Virus record (IMG/VR): IMGVR_UViG_2667527898_000008
Coordinates: 1 to 7,803 of that record
From: a virus
Lineage: Duplodnaviria; Heunggongvirae; Uroviricota; Caudoviricetes
Direction: 5' to 3' (one strand)
Length of the DNA: 7,803 nt
Position numbers and translations under genes: made by a program. Numbering within the stretch: position 1 is the stretch's first letter; every line of letters starts with the position of its first letter. A model generated the notes under the pieces. The model saw only the letters and a program-made list of their open reading frames with translations, had not been told where the DNA came from and did no database searches. Positions 1-7,803 of this stretch are shown piece after piece.

Positions 1-159
1 AATCAGAACAATCACGTGGTGATTCAGAACGACGGCCCCAACGGGCGGGCAGAGCCGCAGCTGATGAAAGCGGTGTATGAGATGGCCCGCAAGGGGGCAC
101 AGGATGAACTCCGGCTGCAGTTGCGTGATGGCGGTATGTTATCAGGGAGCGGTGGATGA
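1..159 (+). CDS. H: Tail tape measure protein, C-terminal fragment (5' end lies outside the window)
   Basis: Frame 1 is open from position 1 to a TGA at 157-159 (52 codons, ...LRLQLRDGGMLSGSGG*). It sits immediately upstream of M, where lambda has H, and its stop overlaps the M start (ATGA at 156-159). Identity is by synteny only, not by recognised sequence. Confidence 0.7.
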   Translation, partial: NQNNHVVIQNDGPNGRAEPQLMKAVYEMARKGAQDELRLQLRDGGMLSGSGG

Positions 160-485
160 AAACCTTTCGCTGGAAAGTGAAGCCGGATATGGAGGTGAAC
201 TCGCAGCCATCGGTGCGTGAAGTGCGTTTTGGTGACGGGTACTCACAGCGTATGGCGGCAGGGCTGAATGCTGACCTGAAAACATACCGGGTGATGCTTT
301 CCGTGACCCGGGAGGAGGCCCGGCATCTGGAAGCGTTTCTGGCAGAGCACGGTGGCTGGAAGGCATTTTTGTGGAAGCCACCCTATGCATACCGGCAGAT
401 AAAGGTGACCTGTGCCGGGTGGTCTGCGCGGGTCGGGATGTTGCGCGTTGAGTTCAGCGCGGAGTTTAAGCAGGTGGTGAACTGA
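156..485 (+). CDS. M: Minor tail protein M (tail tip assembly)
   Basis: 109-aa ORF, the same length as lambda gpM and recognisably similar from memory (MKTFRWKVKPDMEV...). SD-like GGGAG lies upstream. The start overlaps the H stop and the stop overlaps the L start. Confidence 0.9.
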   Translation: MKTFRWKVKPDMEVNSQPSVREVRFGDGYSQRMAAGLNADLKTYRVMLSVTREEARHLEAFLAEHGGWKAFLWKPPYAYRQIKVTCAGWSARVGMLRVEFSAEFKQVVN

Positions 486-1183
486 TGCAGGATATTCACG
501 AAGAAAGTCTGAACGAGTCGGTTAAATCAGAGCAGTCACCGCGGGTGGTACTCTGGGAAATCGACCTGACGGTACAGGGCGGTGAGCGGTATTTTTTCTG
601 TAATGAGCTGAATGAAAAAGGGGAGCCGGTCACCTGGCAGGGGCGTAAGTATGAGGCATACCCGATTGACGGCAGCGGTTTTGAGATGAACGGCCGGGGC
701 AGCAGTGCCAGACCGTCGCTGACGGTGTCCAATCTGTTCGGTCTGGTCACCGGGATGGCGGAGGATTTGCAGAGCCTGGTGGGGGCCACGGTGGTCCGCC
801 GCCGGGTGTATGCCCGTTTTCTGGATGCGGTGAATTTCGTTGCGGGCAATCCGGAAGCGGACCCGGAGCAGGAGCTGAGTGACCGCTGGGTGGTGGAGCA
901 GATGTCGCAGCTGACAGCCATGACGGCCTCGTTTGTGCTGGCCACACCGACCGAGACGGACGGGGCGCTGTTTCCCGGTCGTATCATGCTGGCGAACACC
1001 TGTATGTGGACCTACCGCTCTGATGAGTGTGGTTACACGGGCGGGGCTGTGGCGGATGAGTTCGATAAACCCACCACGGATATCCGTAAGGACAGATGCA
1101 GCAAGTGCATGCGCGGGTGTGAACTGCGCAGGAATGTCGGCAATTTTGGCGGTTTCCTTTCCATTAATAAACTTTCGCAGTAA
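485..1183 (+). CDS. L: Minor tail protein L (tail tip assembly)
   Basis: 232-aa ORF, the same length as lambda gpL, with a Cys-rich C-terminus (C173, C182, C205, C208, C212) as expected for the Fe-S-binding gpL. The ATG overlaps the M stop in TGATG (483-487). Confidence 0.9.
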   Translation: MQDIHEESLNESVKSEQSPRVVLWEIDLTVQGGERYFFCNELNEKGEPVTWQGRKYEAYPIDGSGFEMNGRGSSARPSLTVSNLFGLVTGMAEDLQSLVGATVVRRRVYARFLDAVNFVAGNPEADPEQELSDRWVVEQMSQLTAMTASFVLATPTETDGALFPGRIMLANTCMWTYRSDECGYTGGAVADEFDKPTTDIRKDRCSKCMRGCELRRNVGNFGGFLSINKLSQ

Positions 1184-1188
1184 ATCCC

Positions 1189-1932
1189 ATGACACAGACT
1201 GAATCAGCGATTCTGGCGCATGCCCGGCGGTGTGCGCCTGCGGAGTCGTGCGGCTTCGTGATAAGCACGCCGGAGGGCAACCAGTACCAGCCGTGCGTGA
1301 ATATCTCTGCAGAGCCTGAGGCGTATTTTCGTATCGCACCGGAAGACTGGCTGCGGGCAGAGATGCAGGGGGAGATTGTGGCACTGGTCCACAGTCATCC
1401 CGGTGGACTGCCCTGGCTGAGCGAGGCCGACCGGCGGCTGCAGATAAAAAGCGCACTGCCCTGGTGGCTGGTCAGCCGGGGTGACATTCACAAATTCCGC
1501 TGCGTTCCGCACCTGACGGGACGGCGCTTTGCGCACGGGGTGACGGACTGTTACACGCTGTTCCGGGATGCATACCATCTGGCAGGCATTGATATGCCGG
1601 ATTTTCATCGCGGGGATGACTGGTGGTGCAACGGTCAGAACCTTTACCTGGACAATATGGAGGCAACGGGCTTTTACCGGGTGCCCCTGTCCTCTGCACT
1701 GCCGGGCGATATCCTGCTGTGCTGCTTCGGCGCATCGGTGGCTAATCATGCCGCCATTTACTGCGGCAACGGTGAGCTGCTTCACCATCTGCCTGAACAG
1801 CTGAGTAAACGGGAGAGGTATTCCGAAAAATGGCAACGACGAACGCATTCTGTCTGGCGTCACCGCCACTGGCACGCATCTGCCTTCACGGGGATTTACA
1901 ACGATTTGGCCGCCGCCTCAGCCTGTATGTGA
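1189..1932 (+). CDS. K: Tail tip assembly protein K (JAMM/MPN domain plus NlpC/P60-like domain)
   Basis: 247-aa ORF starting 5 nt after the L stop. A complete JAMM motif H-S-H-x7-S-x2-D is at residues 68-81 (HSHPGGLPWLSEAD, nt 1390-1431). An NlpC/P60-like candidate catalytic Cys is in TDCYTLF (C121, nt 1549-1551), with His residues downstream. The 3' 103 nt overlap gene I in another frame; the true 3' end or start may differ from this longest-ORF call. Confidence 0.87.
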   Translation: MTQTESAILAHARRCAPAESCGFVISTPEGNQYQPCVNISAEPEAYFRIAPEDWLRAEMQGEIVALVHSHPGGLPWLSEADRRLQIKSALPWWLVSRGDIHKFRCVPHLTGRRFAHGVTDCYTLFRDAYHLAGIDMPDFHRGDDWWCNGQNLYLDNMEATGFYRVPLSSALPGDILLCCFGASVANHAAIYCGNGELLHHLPEQLSKRERYSEKWQRRTHSVWRHRHWHASAFTGIYNDLAAASACM

Positions 1933-2510
1933 ACACGGCAGCGGAAGCCATCCGCGCACTGTCGATGCAGGTGCCGGGCTTTCGCCGTCAGATGAACGAA
2001 GGCTGGTACCAGATACGCATTGCCGGTGAGGATACGGCACCGGAGGCGGTGTATGCCCGCCTTCACGAACCACTGAGTGAGGGAACGGTTATCCATATTG
2101 TGCCGCGACTGGCCGGGGCCGGAAAGGGTGGACTGCAGATTGTGCTGGGGGCGGCAGCCATCGTGGGCTCTTTCCTCACTGCCGGTGCCTCGATGGCGTT
2201 ATGGGGTACAGCCCTGAGTGCCGGCGGTTTTTCTGCCACCACGATGCTGTTTTCACTGGGGGCCAGCATGATTCTGGGGGGTGTGGCCCAGATGCTGGCC
2301 CCGAAGGCAAAAACACCGGATTACCGCGCAACGGATAACGGCAGACAGAACACGTATTTTTCGTCACTGGACAACATGATTGCCCAGGGTAACCCGATGC
2401 CGGTGCCTTACGGGGAAATGCTGGTTGGCTCCCGCCGTATATCCCAGGACATCAGTACCCGTGATGAAGGCGGGTGCGGAAAGGTCGTGGTTATCGGGCG
2501 GCAGGGGTAA
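1830..2510 (+). CDS. I: Tail tip assembly protein I
   Basis: 226-aa ORF whose N-terminus (MATTNAFCLASPPLARICLHGDLQRF...) and Gly/Ala-rich hydrophobic middle match my recollection of lambda gpI. SD-like GGGAGAGG is at 1811-1818. It lies between K and J. Confidence 0.87.
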   Translation: MATTNAFCLASPPLARICLHGDLQRFGRRLSLYVNTAAEAIRALSMQVPGFRRQMNEGWYQIRIAGEDTAPEAVYARLHEPLSEGTVIHIVPRLAGAGKGGLQIVLGAAAIVGSFLTAGASMALWGTALSAGGFSATTMLFSLGASMILGGVAQMLAPKAKTPDYRATDNGRQNTYFSSLDNMIAQGNPMPVPYGEMLVGSRRISQDISTRDEGGCGKVVVIGRQG

Positions 2511-2517
2511 AAAGAAT

Positions 2518-2552
2518 AAAAAAAATCCCGCAGTGATCGCGGAGCTGCGGGG
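2518..2552 (-). terminator. Intrinsic (rho-independent) terminator for minus-strand transcription
   Basis: On the minus strand a GC-rich hairpin (2527-2533 CCCGCAG pairing with 2545-2551 CTGCGGG, 7 bp, possible extra G-U pair, 9-11 nt loop) is followed by eight U (plus-strand A8 at 2518-2525) and a further U-rich tail. On the plus strand there is no U tract after the hairpin, so it is unidirectional. Confidence 0.6.
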
Positions 2553-2612
2553 ACAGACAAAGATTAGAGTTAAGGAGTTGTTTTTGTTACTCGGGCAAAA
2601 AAACACTAACGC
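2518..2612 (-). ncRNA. Candidate small non-coding RNA (~95 nt) between promoter and terminator, antisense to the I-J intergenic part of the late transcript
   Basis: Defined only by the minus-strand promoter (2619-2646) and terminator (2518-2552). Predicted RNA: GCGUUAGUGUUUUUUUGCCCGAGUAACAAAAACAACUCCUUAACUCUAAUCUUUGUCUGUCCCCGCAGCUCCGCGAUCACUGCGGGAUUUUUUUU. It has no AUG and no purine-rich SD. A 5' stem is possible (UGUUUUU with AAAAACA), followed by a CU-rich single-stranded stretch containing CUCCUUA. No homology to a known RNA family was established. Confidence 0.4.
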
Positions 2613-2618
2613 AGCGAA

Positions 2619-2646
2619 ATTATACGCGCCACAGTCAGTTTGTGAA
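2619..2646 (-). promoter_or_regulatory. Sigma70-type promoter on the minus strand (-35 TTCACA, 16-bp spacer, -10 TATAAT)
   Basis: Minus-strand reading: TTCACA (plus 2641-2646), 16 bp, TATAAT (plus 2619-2624). The -10 is a perfect consensus and the -35 matches 5 of 6. Predicted start site is near plus coordinate 2611-2613. It lies in an AT-rich island flanked by GC-rich tail genes. Confidence 0.5.
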
Positions 2647-2718
2647 AATGTGAAGATATTCAGAATTTTTATGCCATTACCGGTTTTTACCAACAGGATT
2701 ATCGGTGGACATGAAAGA

Positions 2719-2754
2719 AAACCCCGGTATCTGCTGATACCGGGGTTTCTCTTT
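2719..2754. terminator. Perfect palindrome hairpin flanked by an A tract and a T tract; candidate bidirectional intrinsic terminator
   Basis: CCCCGGTATC (2722-2731), loop TGCT, GATACCGGGG (2736-2745) forms a 10-bp perfect stem, extendable to 13 bp with the flanking AAA and TTT. It is followed by TTTCTCTTT on the plus strand and preceded by AAAGAAAA, which gives a U-rich tail on the minus strand as well. Confidence 0.5.
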
Positions 2755-2851
2755 AGCATGGCAGAAATGTGTTTCATGCTTTTCGGGCGAAGGATATCCG
2801 ACTTCTGTACGGAATGGCAAGTGGCGGTTAATTTATTCAGGGGAAGGCTGT

Positions 2852-5800
2852 ATGGGAAAAGGTGGCGGTAAGGCACACACGCCTCGTGAGGCGAAGGATA
2901 ATCTCAAATCCACGCAGATGATGAGCGTGATTGATGCGGTTGGTGAGGGACCGATAGAAGGCCCGGTGAAGGGACTGCAGAGTATCCTGGTGAACAAAAC
3001 CCCGCTGACGGACACGGACGGTAATCCCGTGATACACGGTGTGACGGCGGTCTGGCGCGCCGGGGAGCAGGAGCAGACACCACCGGAAGGCTTTGAGTCC
3101 TCCGGAGCTGAAACTGTACTGGGCGTGGAAGTGACGAAGGCAAAACCGGTGACGCGCACCATTACGTCCGCGAACATTGACCGCCTGCGGGTTACCTTCG
3201 GGGTGCAGTCACTGGTGCAGACCACGTCAAAGGGTGACCGAAACCCGACATCCGTCCGCCTGCTGATTCAGTTACAGCGTAACGGTAACTGGGTGACAGA
3301 AAAGGATGTCACCATTAACGGCAAGACCACCTCGCAGTTTCTGGCGTCGGTGATTCTGGATAATCTGCCTCCCCGTCCTTTTAACATCCGGATGGTCCGG
3401 GAGACGGCGGACAGCACCACGGACCAGTTGCAGAACAGAACACTCTGGTCATCGTACACCGAAATCATCGATGTGAAACAGTGCTACCCGAACACGGCGA
3501 TTGTGGGGCTGCAGGTGGATGCGGAGCAGTTCGGTGGTCAGCAGATGACGGTGAACTACCATATCCGCGGTCGCATCATCCAGGTGCCGTCAAACTATGA
3601 CCCGGAAAAACGCACCTACAGCGGTATCTGGGACGGCAGTCTGAAACCGGCATACAGCAACAACCCGGCCTGGTGCCTGTGGGACATGCTGACTCACCCG
3701 CGCTACGGGATGGGAAAACGCCTGGGGGCGGCGGATGTGGACAAGTGGGCGCTGTATGCCATCGGGCAGTACTGCGACCAGACGGTCCCGGATGGTTTCG
3801 GGGGCACAGAGCCGCGGATGACCTTTAATGCGTACCTGGCACAACAGCGTAAGGCGTGGGACGTTCTCAGTGATTTCTGCTCGGCGATGCGCTGTATGCC
3901 GGTATGGAACGGCCAGACGCTGACGTTCGTTCAGGACCGCCCGTCGGATGTGGTGTGGCCGTACACCAACAGCGATGTGGTGGTGGATGATAACGGCGTG
4001 GGGTTCCGCTACAGCTTCAGTGCCCTGAAGGACCGGCACACGGCGGTGGAGGTGAATTACACCGACCCGCAGAACGGCTGGCAGACCTCCACGGAACTGG
4101 TGGAAGACCCGGAAGCCATACTGCGCTACGGACGCAATCTGCTGAAGATGGATGCGTTTGGCTGTACCAGCCGCGGTCAGGCTCACCGTGCAGGTCTGTG
4201 GGTGATAAAGACCGAACTGCTGGAAACGCAGACGGTGGACTTCACGCTCGGGTCACAGGGGCTGCGTCACACACCGGGTGACATTATTGAAATCTGTGAT
4301 AACGACTATGCCGGGACTATGACCGGCGGACGTATCCTGTCCATTGATGCTGCCACCCGCACCCTGACGCTGGACCGTGAGGTTACCCTGCCGGAGACAG
4401 GTACATCGGCGGTGAACCTGATTAACGGCAGCGGTAAGCCGGTGAGTGTGGACATCACCGCACACCCCGCGCCGGACCGGATACAGGTCAGTACCCTGCC
4501 TGATGGTGTGGAGACATACGGTGTGTGGGGACTCTCCCTGCCGTCACTGCGCCGTCGCCTGTTCCGCTGTGTCTCCATCCGGGAAAACACGGACGGCACC
4601 TTTGCCATCACGGCGGTGCAGCACGTACCGGAAAAAGAAGCCATTGTGGATAACGGAGCCCGCTTTGAGCCGCAGTCAGGCACCCTGAACAGCGTTATCC
4701 CACCGGCAGTACAGCACCTCACGGTGGAGGTGAGCGCAGCTGACAGCCAGTATCTGGCGCTGGCGAAATGGGACACGCCGAGGGTGGTGAAGGGCGTGCG
4801 CTTCAGTCTGCGCCTGACCAGTGGAAGCGATGAGAACAGCCGCCTGCTGACCACCGCCATCACTGCCGATACGGAGCACCGTTTCAGTGGCCTGCCTCTC
4901 GGGGAATACACCCTGACGGTCAGGGCGATAAACAGCTACGGCCAGCAGGGCGAACCCGCCACCACCACGTTCCGGATTAACGCACCGGCAGCGCCTGCCG
5001 GTGTTGAACTGACGCCGGGGTATTTTCAGATAACGGCAGTCCCGAAACTGACCATTTATGACCCGACGGTGCAGTTTGAGTTCTGGTTTTCGGAGGCAAA
5101 AATTGCAGACGCCGCACAGGTGGAAACCTCTGCCCGTTATCTGGGGACCGGCAGTCAGTGGAGTGTCTCCGGTCCGCACATTAAGCCCGGAAAGGATTTC
5201 TGGTTTTATGTGCGCAGCGTCAACCTGGTGGGTAAATCTGCTTTTGTGGAAGCCAGTGGACGGGCGAGCAATGATGCTGCGGGCTATCTGGAGTTTTTCC
5301 GGGAAAAGATAGGAAAAACACATCTGGCAGAGGCGCTGTGGGCAGAGATTGACAACAGCAAGCTGAAGGACGAGATGGCGGAAATGCAGACCACCATCAC
5401 AGAAACCCGCAATGAAATCACGCAGACGGTCAGTAAAACGCTGGAGGACCAGAGCGCCACCATACAGCAGATACAGCGCGTGCAGAAGGACACAAATGAT
5501 GACCTTGCTGCACTTTACATGCTGAAGGTACAGAAAACAAAAAATGGCATACCCTATGTTGCCGGTATTGGAGCGGGGATTGAGGATACTGATGGCCAGC
5601 CCCTGAGCAACATACTGCTGCTGGCTGACCGTATTGCGATGATTAACCCGGAGGACGGCAACACCACGCCGTTATTTGTGGCGCAGGGGAATCAGTTGTT
5701 CATGAACGATGTGTTCCTGAAGCGGCTGTTTGCGGTGAGTATCACCTCGTCCGGCAATCCCCCTACGTTCTCCCTGACGCCGGAAGGCAGGCTGACGGCC

Positions 5801-6382
5801 CGTAATGCGGATATCAGCGGACATATCAGTGCGAACTCGGGCACGCTGAATAATGTCGTGATAGCGGAGAACTGTACCATCAAAGGTACTCTGAGAGCGG
5901 AAAATATCATTGGCGATGTGGTGAAAACGCACAATGTCAGTCTTCCTGATCTCAGGGCTGCAGGGGAGCACAGACACGCGACAGAACGAACGGTTACTGT
6001 CATTGATGATCAGTCGTTTGACCGGAATATTGTTATCCCGCCGGTTTTTTATTCCGGTATTATCTACAAAGGAAGTGATGGTGACGGTGCGACCTCAATC
6101 TGTACGCTGACGGTGAGTGTGAATGATCGGGTGGTGTTCAGCAAAACCTCATCCATCGGTACCAGGCGTACGTCAGGGGGATACCCCGTTCAGGAAGACA
6201 CCATATATCCCGGGTCATCCACTCCGTTCAGCTATTTCATGAGGATGGCGTCAGGGGGAGGTGATGTCAGGATCAAGTTCCGGATTGAGGTCATCTATTA
6301 TGGAACTGCACCGGGTTTTATGACCACAGGGATACAGATCACAACGATGAAGGCGTCAGCTTCAGGATTTGTGGAAAGTTAA
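2852..6382 (+). CDS. J: Tail tip host-specificity protein J (central tail fibre, receptor binding)
   Basis: 1176-aa ORF. The N-terminus ([22 protein letters not shown]...) and long internal stretches (for example [36 protein letters not shown] and [33 protein letters not shown]) match my recollection of lambda gpJ. SD GGAAGG is 4 nt upstream of the ATG. Size and position after I fit. Confidence 0.95.
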
Positions 6383-6703
6383 TCCCGGACGATCGTGATT
6401 GCCGGAAGGAGACAAAAACCGCACAGTATGCGCGGGTGCCTTTGGCTGATGGCCGGAGGGAACACCTGAAAGCCTGATGTGAAAAGGCCCCGAGTCAACT
6501 TCAATGTTAACCCGAGGCCCTGATCCGTCTATCTTAAGCAAGTGGCAGGTTAGCGCCTCTCCGTAATAAGGAGCAAGTGCTGTGTCGCAAAAACCACCGT
6601 GATTTGTATCACTGTAGTGCTCATTATCTGGATCACCCACCGTTCACTGTGTGAATTCCGGTTCCGGATAGCACCTTTTTAATCCTGTAAACCACGATTT
6701 TTA

Positions 6704-6738
6704 CCGCAGACCGGGAAACCGGCACTGCGGTTTTTTTT
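6704..6738 (+). terminator. Intrinsic terminator on the plus strand, immediately upstream of stf
   Basis: Two-tier hairpin: outer stem CCGCAG (6704-6709) with CTGCGG (6725-6730), inner stem CCGG with CCGG closing a GAAA tetraloop (6715-6718), followed by T8 (6731-6738). The minus-strand side is A-rich after the hairpin, so it is unidirectional. Confidence 0.65.
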
Positions 6739-6751
6739 ATGGGGAAAATCT

Positions 6752-7803
6752 ATGACAGTCAGAATATCGGGCGTGCTGAAGGACGGCACCGGGAAGCCGG
6801 TGCCGGGATGCACCATTGAACTGAAAGCCCTGCGCACCACGGAGACAGTGATTGTCACCACGGTGGCGCAGGGGCAGCCGGGGGAAACCGGCAGTTACAG
6901 TTTTGATGTGGAGCCGGGGTGGTACCGGGTGACGCTGAACACGGAAGGGTACGCCCCGTCGTATGTGGGTGACATTCTGGTGAAGGCGGATTCTGAGCCG
7001 GGAACGCTGAATAAATTTCTGATGGAACAGGATGAGGCGCAGTATTACCCGAAAGCGCTTGCAGAGCTGGAAGCGGTGGCAGCGGAAATCCTGAAGCGTG
7101 CTGAAGCGTCGGCGGCGAGTGCAGAGGAAGCGAAGAAACGGGCAGAGAATGCCCGGGGACCGGCGGGCGAGAAGGGGGACACAGGTCCACAGGGTGCCAC
7201 AGGGGCACAGGGACCAGCCGGGGCAACGGGGGCGGTCGGACCAAAAGGTGAGCCGGGGCCAAAGGGAGAACGGGGAGAAACAGGTCCACAGGGACCGAAG
7301 GGCGATAAAGGTGACCCGGGCGGACCGCCGGGGCCGAAAGGTGACACCGGCCCACGTGGAGAGGCCGGACCACCCGGACCACAGGGTCCGGCAGGGCAAA
7401 CCGGCCCGAAAGGGGATAAAGGTGAACCCGGCGCAACAGGTCCGGCAGGTCCCGCAGGCCCTCGGGGAGAAACCGGCCCCGCAGGTCCTGCGGGTCCCGC
7501 AGGCAGTGTCGCCAGTGTTCCGGATGCCAGCACATCACAGAAAGGTGTTGTACAGCTGAGCAGCGATACCAACAGCGATGATGAAACAAAAGCGGCAACC
7601 CCAAAGGCTGTGAAAGCGGTAATGGCAGAAGTGCAGGCAGCAAAAACGAAGGCAGAAGAGGCAGCAACCCGGGCAGCAGTCCCCGGACCGAAGGGGGACA
7701 GGGGGGAACCTGGCGCACCTGGTGTAGTGGGGCCCGCAGGCCCTCAGGGACCGGCTGGTGCAGCCGGAGCCAAAGGTGCCCCGGGGCCAAAAGGGGACAA
7801 AGG
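6752..7803 (+). CDS. stf: Side tail fibre protein with collagen-like Gly-X-Y repeats (5' part; 3' end lies outside the window)
   Basis: The frame is open from ATG 6752 to the window end (350 codons, checked by hand). It is absent from the ORF track only because it has no stop inside the window. The N-terminus ([26 protein letters not shown]...) resembles the lambda Stf N-terminus as I recall it. SD-like GGGGAAAA is upstream. Long Gly-X-Y tracts follow an Ala/Glu-rich helical segment. Confidence 0.85.
7157..7504 (+). repeat. Collagen-like Gly-X-Y coding repeat, tract 1 (about 38 triplets, residues 136-251 of Stf)
   Basis: Translation shows uninterrupted G-X-Y periodicity ([22 protein letters not shown]...) with a single one-residue register interruption at G190/G191 (nt 7319-7324). 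The GC-rich, Pro-coding DNA produces the spurious antisense ORFs 6855-7790 and 7045-7572. Confidence 0.85.
7685..7803 (+). repeat. Collagen-like Gly-X-Y coding repeat, tract 2 (continues beyond the window)
   Basis: [39 protein letters not shown]. It is separated from tract 1 by a 60-residue non-collagen linker ([60 protein letters not shown]). The 13-bp direct repeat CCCGCAGGCCCTC occurs at 7451-7463 and 7733-7745. Confidence 0.8.

Follow-up and report, generated by a model that had tools for sequence, protein, structure and literature searches.

The locus considered here raises the question of why a complete transcription unit should lie on the minus strand of a phage tail operon, and whether its product is an mRNA, a chance by-product or a small regulatory RNA. 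In the window (by which we mean the whole 7,803-nucleotide stretch analysed, positions 1 to 7,803 of the Caudoviricetes record IMGVR_UViG_2667527898_000008) the gap between tail genes I and J measures 341 bp (I stop at 2510, J start at 2852) and has a GC content of 0.405-0.43, as compared to 0.55-0.65 in the flanking genes, in agreement with the AT-rich island described by an earlier sequence-only reading. A consensus scan placed TTCACA, a 16-nt spacer and TATAAT on the minus strand (2646..2619; 11/12 consensus match; three promoter-like sites in the 700-bp region versus 0.8 expected from shuffles), and some 95 nt downstream the same strand carries CCCGCAG (2551-2545), an 11-nt loop, CUGCGGG (2533-2527) and an A followed by U8 (2525-2518). 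Both the near-consensus sigma70 promoter and the intrinsic terminator (7-bp GC stem plus U8) proposed in that reading are thus present where it had put them, the terminator scan itself having returned an overlapping 6-bp version of the stem. As the plus strand has no U-run after the stem, the terminator works on the minus strand only. The RNA delimited by these elements (2612 to 2518) contains neither an AUG nor a Shine-Dalgarno sequence, as had been claimed, and the CU-rich and CA-rich stretches quoted earlier (ACUCCUUAACUC and AACAAAAACAAC) are both found in it; folding of the 95-nt molecule gave the terminator only, plus a weak 5' hairpin (Table 1).

The identity of the unit was settled by comparison with PasB, a small RNA of enteropathogenic E. 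coli. The published PasB Northern probe (AATCCCGCAGTGATCGCGGAGCT) is an exact match to window positions 2524-2546 on the plus strand (0 chance matches expected), and the PasB gene of strain E2348/69 (NC_011601 1466343..1466261, minus) lies between the gene for a tail assembly protein and that for gpJ, antisense to both, in a locus that aligns with the window without interruption from the I stop to about 2675. On the strength of the probe match, the position and the alignment, the unit at 2518-2646 is, by its sequence, an allele of PasB, already found in pathogenic E. coli and hence not new. Its placement in the I-J gap antisense to the operon recurs in 15 further loci, and the window unit possesses the other attributes of the family (a promoter of its own, a Rho-independent terminator and an RNA of ~80-95 nt), together with general features of Hfq-dependent base-pairing sRNAs (a U8 tail, a single-stranded seed and an (ARN)5 run). 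Rfam 15 holds no family for PasB, and searches of the whole window at gathering thresholds and of 2400-2950 at E<=10 returned sub-threshold noise only (e.g. Trp_leader, and Hrs1 with 22 bits, its gathering score being 56).

Table 1. Coordinates of the pasB unit and its flanks in the window, with the basis of each assignment
Feature	Position	Strand	Basis or remark
PasB-family sRNA	2518..2612	-	95-nt primary transcript predicted from the TATAAT promoter; probe match, E2348/69 alignment, fold
-10 hexamer TATAAT	2619..2624	-	ATAAT invariant in 16/16 family members compared
-35-like hexamer TTCACA, 16-bp spacer	2641..2646	-	Consensus scan
Best-conserved promoter block, holding the CRP-like dyad	2646..2672	.	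Family comparison; candidate operator (inferred)
(ARN)5 run AGUAACAAAAACAAC	2577..2591	-	Probable Hfq distal-face handle
Single-stranded seed region	2552..2577	-	Near-constant CUCCUU (2572-2577, anti-Shine-Dalgarno), then allele-specific AACUCUAAUCUUUGUCUGUC
Rho-independent terminator	2518..2552	-	7-bp stem, 11-nt loop, A + U8
Tail assembly protein I (3' flank)	1929..2510	+	RefSeq annotation of the record identical over 2490-2870; ORF list
Tail tip / host specificity protein J (5' flank)	2852..6382	+	RefSeq annotation of that record; ORF list
Distinct 176-bp module that separates the pasB promoter from J	2676..2851	.	Outside PasB; missing in E2348/69

PasB was described as E2348CN_0006 of prophage PP6 in EPEC O127:H6 E2348/69 (Pearl Mizrahi et al. 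2021, Sci Adv, PMC8550237), where Table S6 of that study lists it at NC_011601.1 1466343..1466261, minus strand, with a length of 83 nt. It is an abundant RNA that gives a Northern band of ~83 nt, depends on Hfq for its stability (with a drop in delta-hfq of 6.8 log2 units under the activating condition and of 2.4 under the non-activating one) and reaches higher levels in static LB cultures grown overnight than in DMEM during exponential growth (PMC8550237). RIL-seq gave it 37 partners, the chimeras numbering 258 under the activating condition and 1820 under the non-activating one, and it occupies the position of 3' partner (RNA2) in ~99-100% of its chimeras (PMC8550237). A later study of its distribution (Zhu, Shabalina and Storz 2026, bioRxiv 10.64898/2026.05.13.724894) gave PasB no known function, located it inside phage structural operons, reported it as common in extraintestinal isolates and assigned its seed to the single-stranded region that precedes the terminator. 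Expression, size, Hfq dependence and RIL-seq partners are therefore established for the E2348/69 PasB and not for the window allele. Even so, the Northern-verified RNA of E2348/69 bears out the earlier view of the locus as a prophage-encoded small RNA rather than an mRNA, and the fall of PasB in delta-hfq, together with its near-constant place as 3' partner, supports the probable Hfq binding suggested along with it. We consider that the case illustrates how a reading of raw sequence can recover a genuine regulatory RNA gene, the biological gain being modest.

A chance pairing of promoter and terminator, or a small protein gene, would be an alternative to an RNA gene, and the window does contain two open reading frames, 2364..2876 (-) and 2380..2871 (+), that cross the gap without a stop, while in phage ASU11 a 66-aa hypothetical protein is annotated in the gap. 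Against this, the homologous junctions carry stops in the corresponding frames (in 6/6 frames in E2348/69), the indels that separate pasB alleles are not multiples of three, the E2348/69 allele yields the RNA verified by Northern blot, and the window RNA is devoid of the start codon and ribosome-binding sequence that a protein gene would call for. The conserved protein-coding gene for which the sequence-only reading had allowed is not there, as the homologues keep no frame open across the gap, and we consider this alternative extremely improbable. Coding potential in the two gap-crossing frames of the window was rejected, neither frame being conserved in the homologues.

Compared with the E2348/69 PasB, the window unit has the same I-J position and the same strand (antisense to the tail operon), an identical terminator (the probe site included), an identical 5' part, ARN run and CUCCUU box, the TATAAT -10 in common and a nearly identical upstream block. 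The two differ between CUCCUU and the terminator, where the window shows a 4-nt deletion and 4 substitutions (AACUCUAAUCUUUG versus CACAUUGAUCUUCAUUUG in E2348/69), in the U-tail (U8 in the window, U7 in E2348/69) and in the extra 176-bp module between promoter and J, which is present in the window and not in E2348/69.

The same RNA could be thought of as an anti-sRNA, and the sequence-only reading had named AgvB and AsxR as possible identities. If PasB were a sponge of this kind, the CA-rich stretch would imitate the targets of GcvB, by which GcvB or a different core sRNA would be titrated; in keeping with this AACAAAAACAAC occurs in the window RNA, EHEC prophages do encode anti-sRNAs with ARN motifs, and one chimera with an sRNA region is listed for PasB (the pasA-adjacent intergenic region). 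AgvB (RF02702) and AsxR (RF02703) moreover resemble PasB in being short, prophage-encoded and Hfq-bound, in having ARN motifs and in being built of a conserved terminator module and a targeting part that varies. On the other hand, they lie downstream of the Q-antiterminated PR' and convergently to the stx or moron slot, whereas PasB sits between I and J in the tail operon; they are sponges for GcvB and FnrS, whereas PasB acts as the sRNA partner in RIL-seq; and the two groups show no similarity in sequence or by covariance model. The Rfam AgvB and AsxR models gave no match to the window RNA at the gathering threshold or at E<=10, in spite of the AgvB model finding AgvB in Sakai. The GcvB R1 target consensus CACAACA is missing from PasB, and in duplex energy with GcvB 184 and 238 of 300 PasB shuffles were at least as good (a control sequence with CACAACA beat 300/300 shuffles); furthermore, no GcvB-PasB chimera occurs among the chimera rows examined. 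Identity with AgvB or AsxR is ruled out by location, covariance models and GcvB pairing, and a sponge function of this type for PasB appears very unlikely. What stood of the earlier suggestion is that the locus encodes a prophage sRNA already described, this being PasB instead of AgvB or AsxR; the CA-rich stretch is likewise present, but its pairing with GcvB is no better than that of shuffles, and it reads better as the (ARN)5 Hfq-binding run of the PasB allele.

EHEC does appear to harbor PasB relatives under other names. EcOnc22, 23 and 24, encoded in prophages Sp15, Sp14 and Sp11 of EHEC O157:H7 Sakai (Tree et al. 2014, Mol Cell, PMC4104026, Table S2), are Hfq-crosslinked RNAs of ~85 nt on Northern blots that are destabilised in delta-hfq (PMC4104026). 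The EcOnc22 coordinates fall in the I-J gap of Sp15, on the strand antisense to the tail genes, and this gap holds a PasB homologue (~72-78% identity to the window unit, seed AACUCCAUAACGUUAAUCUUCAUCG, poor -35). The position of AgvB differs between the old and the current Sakai record by +137 to +146, and with this shift, measured at 1.94 Mb and thus away from the locus itself, the EcOnc22 peak lies inside the PasB homologue. EcOnc22-24 very probably belong to the PasB family, a link that is mentioned neither by Pearl Mizrahi 2021 (PMC8550237) nor by Zhu 2026 (10.64898/2026.05.13.724894).

The extent of the family was assessed in 5426 complete E. coli genomes. With the junction (2490-2870) as megablast query, matches were obtained in 1664/5426 genomes (2449 loci), while a sensitive blastn search with the unit and short flanks (2505-2680) yielded 5604 loci in 1814/5426 genomes (about a third), with up to 11 loci per genome, identities from 100% down to ~72%, and ST131 and EHEC strains among the carriers. 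The PasB family is larger and more varied than described. The position between I and J is kept in every locus examined. Phage lambda has an I-J gap of 60 bp, with only a plus-strand hairpin and no pasB unit, so that the unit is to be seen as an insertion, which upholds the proposal of a moron inserted in the tail operon.

Alignment of sixteen I-J junctions separated a constant frame from a variable interior. Conserved were the U-tract, the terminator stem, UUAAUCUU, the 5' GCGUUA, the -10 ATAAT and an upstream block, ATAAAAnTTCTGA-N6-TCACATTT; the CUCCUU box is retained in most members, and an (ARN)2-6 run directly adjoins the C/UUCC box in 15/18 tabulated units (and stands one base away in a 16th). 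The variable parts are the seed beyond CUCCUU, the terminator loop and the -35 hexamer. RNAalifold on the family recovered the invariant terminator stem only, with no covariation and no other helix conserved; covariation support for the terminator is absent because its stem does not vary. The 5' U-run/A-run hairpin seen in single-sequence folds was discarded, RNAalifold giving it no support at family level.

Some loci depart from the simple arrangement. L015 (NZ_CP146515.1, 701-1525) and L012 (NZ_AP042554.1, 696-1121) carry tandem arrays of two to four PasB-like units after gene I, each unit with its own dyad box and terminator; one of the arrayed units has a different terminator (CUCCCGU..ACGGGAG) and retains ACUCCUUAA. 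A divergent subfamily, represented by L016 (704-860) and by the final unit of L015_922, retains GCGUUA, the terminator and the promoter block and has AACGCCAACAGGUUAGUCAACAUCG in place of CUCCUU, from which it follows that the anti-Shine-Dalgarno box is not universal. A pattern scan of one genome per species found the unit beyond E. coli only in E. albertii and in three further records (L027, L029 and L030). Exact matches to the pasB pattern were seen in a Parendozoicomonas contig of 460 bp, a Streptomyces contig of 3.4 kb and a 252-kb contig of an Akkermansia metagenome-assembled genome; these probably represent E. coli contamination or misbinning.

It is quite conceivable, though we stop short of calling it probable, that pasB is to be viewed not as one sRNA but as a diversifying sRNA cassette, in which constant parts (the CRP-like dyad, the -10, GCGUUA, the ARN run, in most members the CUCCUU box, and the terminator) would frame an allele-variable seed. 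Such a cassette would exist in up to 11 copies per genome, sometimes in tandem arrays, and would include EcOnc22-24. Were this the case, prophages would supply their hosts with co-regulated sRNAs directed at different sets of targets and possibly responsive to the carbon source, and the window allele would be one of the members, as yet unstudied, with targets of its own.

The alleles differ in the seed. In the window it reads CUCCUUAACUCUAAUCUUUGUCUGU, and at the allele-specific stretch E2348/69 has CACAUUGAUCUUCAUUUGUCUGUC against AACUCUAAUCUUUGUCUGUC in the window. The window seed allele is present at >=99% identity in only 39/5426 genomes; for 856 genomes the best match reaches 80-90% identity, thus representing other alleles. 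Strains that carry the window allele include UPEC-245U/190328 and O145:H28 RM12761. As for the targets, the six partners with most chimeras among the PasB RIL-seq rows listed were examined (E2348C_2648, napF, map, the nlpD-rpoS region, hflX and fabR), bearing in mind that RIL-seq reports proximity on Hfq and not regulation. For 3/6 the fragment falls on a translation start, namely that of napF, that of yijD (listed as a fabR fragment) and that of the gene which follows E2348C_2648, and the nlpD-region fragment is situated at the start of rpoS. Pairing was measured as the longest perfect match versus 200 shuffled targets, unrestricted full-length duplexfold having given meaningless full-length duplexes. 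By this measure the E2348/69 PasB matches napF over 11 nt (CUUCACAUUGA; equalled by 1/200 shuffles), yijD over 11 nt (UCCUUCACAUU; 0/200) and rpoS over 10 nt (AUCUUCAUUU; 3/200), and only 7-nt matches, no better than chance, were found with map and hflX. The three long matches define the seed of the E2348/69 allele as CUCCUUCACAUUGAUCUUCAUUU. It is exactly in this pairing stretch that the window seed differs, reading CUCCUUAACUCUAAUCUUUG, and its matches to napF, yijD and rpoS (6, 5 and 7 nt, respectively) are at chance level; the two alleles do not share a seed, which leaves family membership unaffected. Owing to these allele-specific seeds, target lists from E2348/69 should not be carried over to strains that have other alleles. 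The CU-rich anti-Shine-Dalgarno stretch to which the sequence-only reading had drawn attention is present, but it is merely the constant edge of a longer, variable seed.

Considering these data jointly, we regard it as probable that the pasB allele is a self-contained sRNA gene of the I-J gap whose product acts in trans, depends on Hfq and occludes ribosome-binding sites. Transcription would proceed against the late operon and generate an RNA of ~80-95 nt, laid out from 5' to 3' as an (ARN)n run, a seed starting with CUCCUU, and a Rho-independent terminator with its U-tail. Hfq would bind the U-tail and the ARN run, and the seed would then pair in trans with the translation-initiation regions of host and mobile-element mRNAs, by which the binding of ribosomes would be blocked. 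Past CUCCUU the seed is not the same in all alleles, and the window allele is accordingly expected to control other mRNAs than the E2348/69 allele.

The location of the gene also invites an explanation in cis, according to which PasB would pair with the I-J spacer and trigger cleavage or uncouple J from I, thereby silencing leaky tail-gene transcripts in lysogens or tuning J in lytic growth. The RNA does lie wholly within the I-J gap on the opposite strand, fully complementary to the spacer of the late transcript, and the position is, as said, constant across the pasB loci examined. Nevertheless, its end is 8 nt beyond the I stop and its distance from the J start exceeds 240 nt; it consequently covers no tail-gene ribosome-binding site. 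Furthermore, the seed varies, whereas any cis-antisense RNA has perfect complementarity to the locus that encodes it; because such complementarity is independent of sequence, the cis model fails to explain why a CUCCUU box and an ARN run should be kept. All RIL-seq partners listed for PasB are, moreover, trans-encoded. We therefore hold cis-antisense regulation to be improbable as the function of PasB, and note that a cis role could exist alongside the trans role that we favour.

The published 83-nt form corresponds, through the E2348/69 alignment, to window positions 2519-2597, so that the 5' end given by RNA-seq coverage (2597) does not coincide with the one expected from the promoter. The TATAAT hexamer does predict the start near 2612 that had been put forward, and the discrepancy reflects either a second start site or processing of the RNA. 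Of the two hexamers the -10 (ATAAT) is kept across the family, but the TTCACA -35 is not kept in distant members, which have TCCGGC, TCCGAA or TCCGCA instead.

Better conserved than the -35 hexamer is a dyad upstream of the promoter, TGTGA-N6-TCAGA at 2649-2664 (centre 2656.5), with invariant half-sites and a variable spacer. The consensus site for CRP is TGTGA-N6-TCACA, of which the dyad has 9/10 core bases, and CRP sites are centred at about -61.5 in class I promoters and at -41.5 in class II promoters. Relative to the start at 2612 predicted from TATAAT the dyad is centred at -44.5, which fits neither class, and relative to G2596, which adjoins the RNA-seq 5' end and has a weak TAGTGT -10 upstream, it is centred at -60.5, a class I position. 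Spot 42 (Spf) is repressed by CRP, and in the LB/DMEM data it behaves in the opposite way to PasB (high in LB, low in DMEM). We tentatively put forward CRP as a possible regulator of the pasB promoter, and consider such control somewhat less likely than not. Neither promoters nor CRP are discussed for PasB by Zhu et al. 2026 (10.64898/2026.05.13.724894).

The remainder of the gap and the neighbouring genes of the window offered several further observations. The module at 2676-2851 contains a 14-bp hairpin (2718-2749) with a U-rich run behind it on either strand, and for this reason looks like a bidirectional terminator. It is missing from E2348/69 and most other junctions, where a shorter plus-strand hairpin (CAGGCACCC..GGGTGCCTG plus Ts) is found instead, lambda having its own form. 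In contrast to the pasB unit, which is diverse, the module hardly varies (95-100% identity across 1446 genomes); transcription from a weak minus-strand promoter (2820..2791) could yield a second RNA of ~70 nt, and it is at this module that the 66-aa hypothetical ORF of phage ASU11 is located.

The gap between J and the tail-fibre gene (6383-6753) is without lom and holds a hok/sok-like type I toxin-antitoxin locus. The annotation of homologues with ~94% identity is Hok/Gef family protein, frame 0 of the plus strand reads ..VICITVVLIIWITHRSLCEFRFRIAPF* (a short Hok-like peptide), and a plus-strand hairpin with T8 lies at 6710-6738, while a minus-strand terminator (6435-6419) could end a Sok-like RNA; Rfam returned nothing for 6383-6753 at the gathering threshold. 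With respect to the prophage of UPEC-245U/190328, the window shows ~96-98% identity over 1-5875 and 6725-7778 and reaches 100% in the stretch 2490-2870. The segment between (5875-6725, comprising the J C-terminus and the sequence downstream) is unrelated to that record, which points to a mosaic exchange of the receptor-binding end of J. Lastly, the region 7100-7600 has a GC content of 0.68-0.73 and a strong AT skew, and the N-terminal part of the tail fibre encoded there carries collagen-like Gly-X-Y repeats, seen indirectly as GPAGPAGPV in a minus-strand frame.
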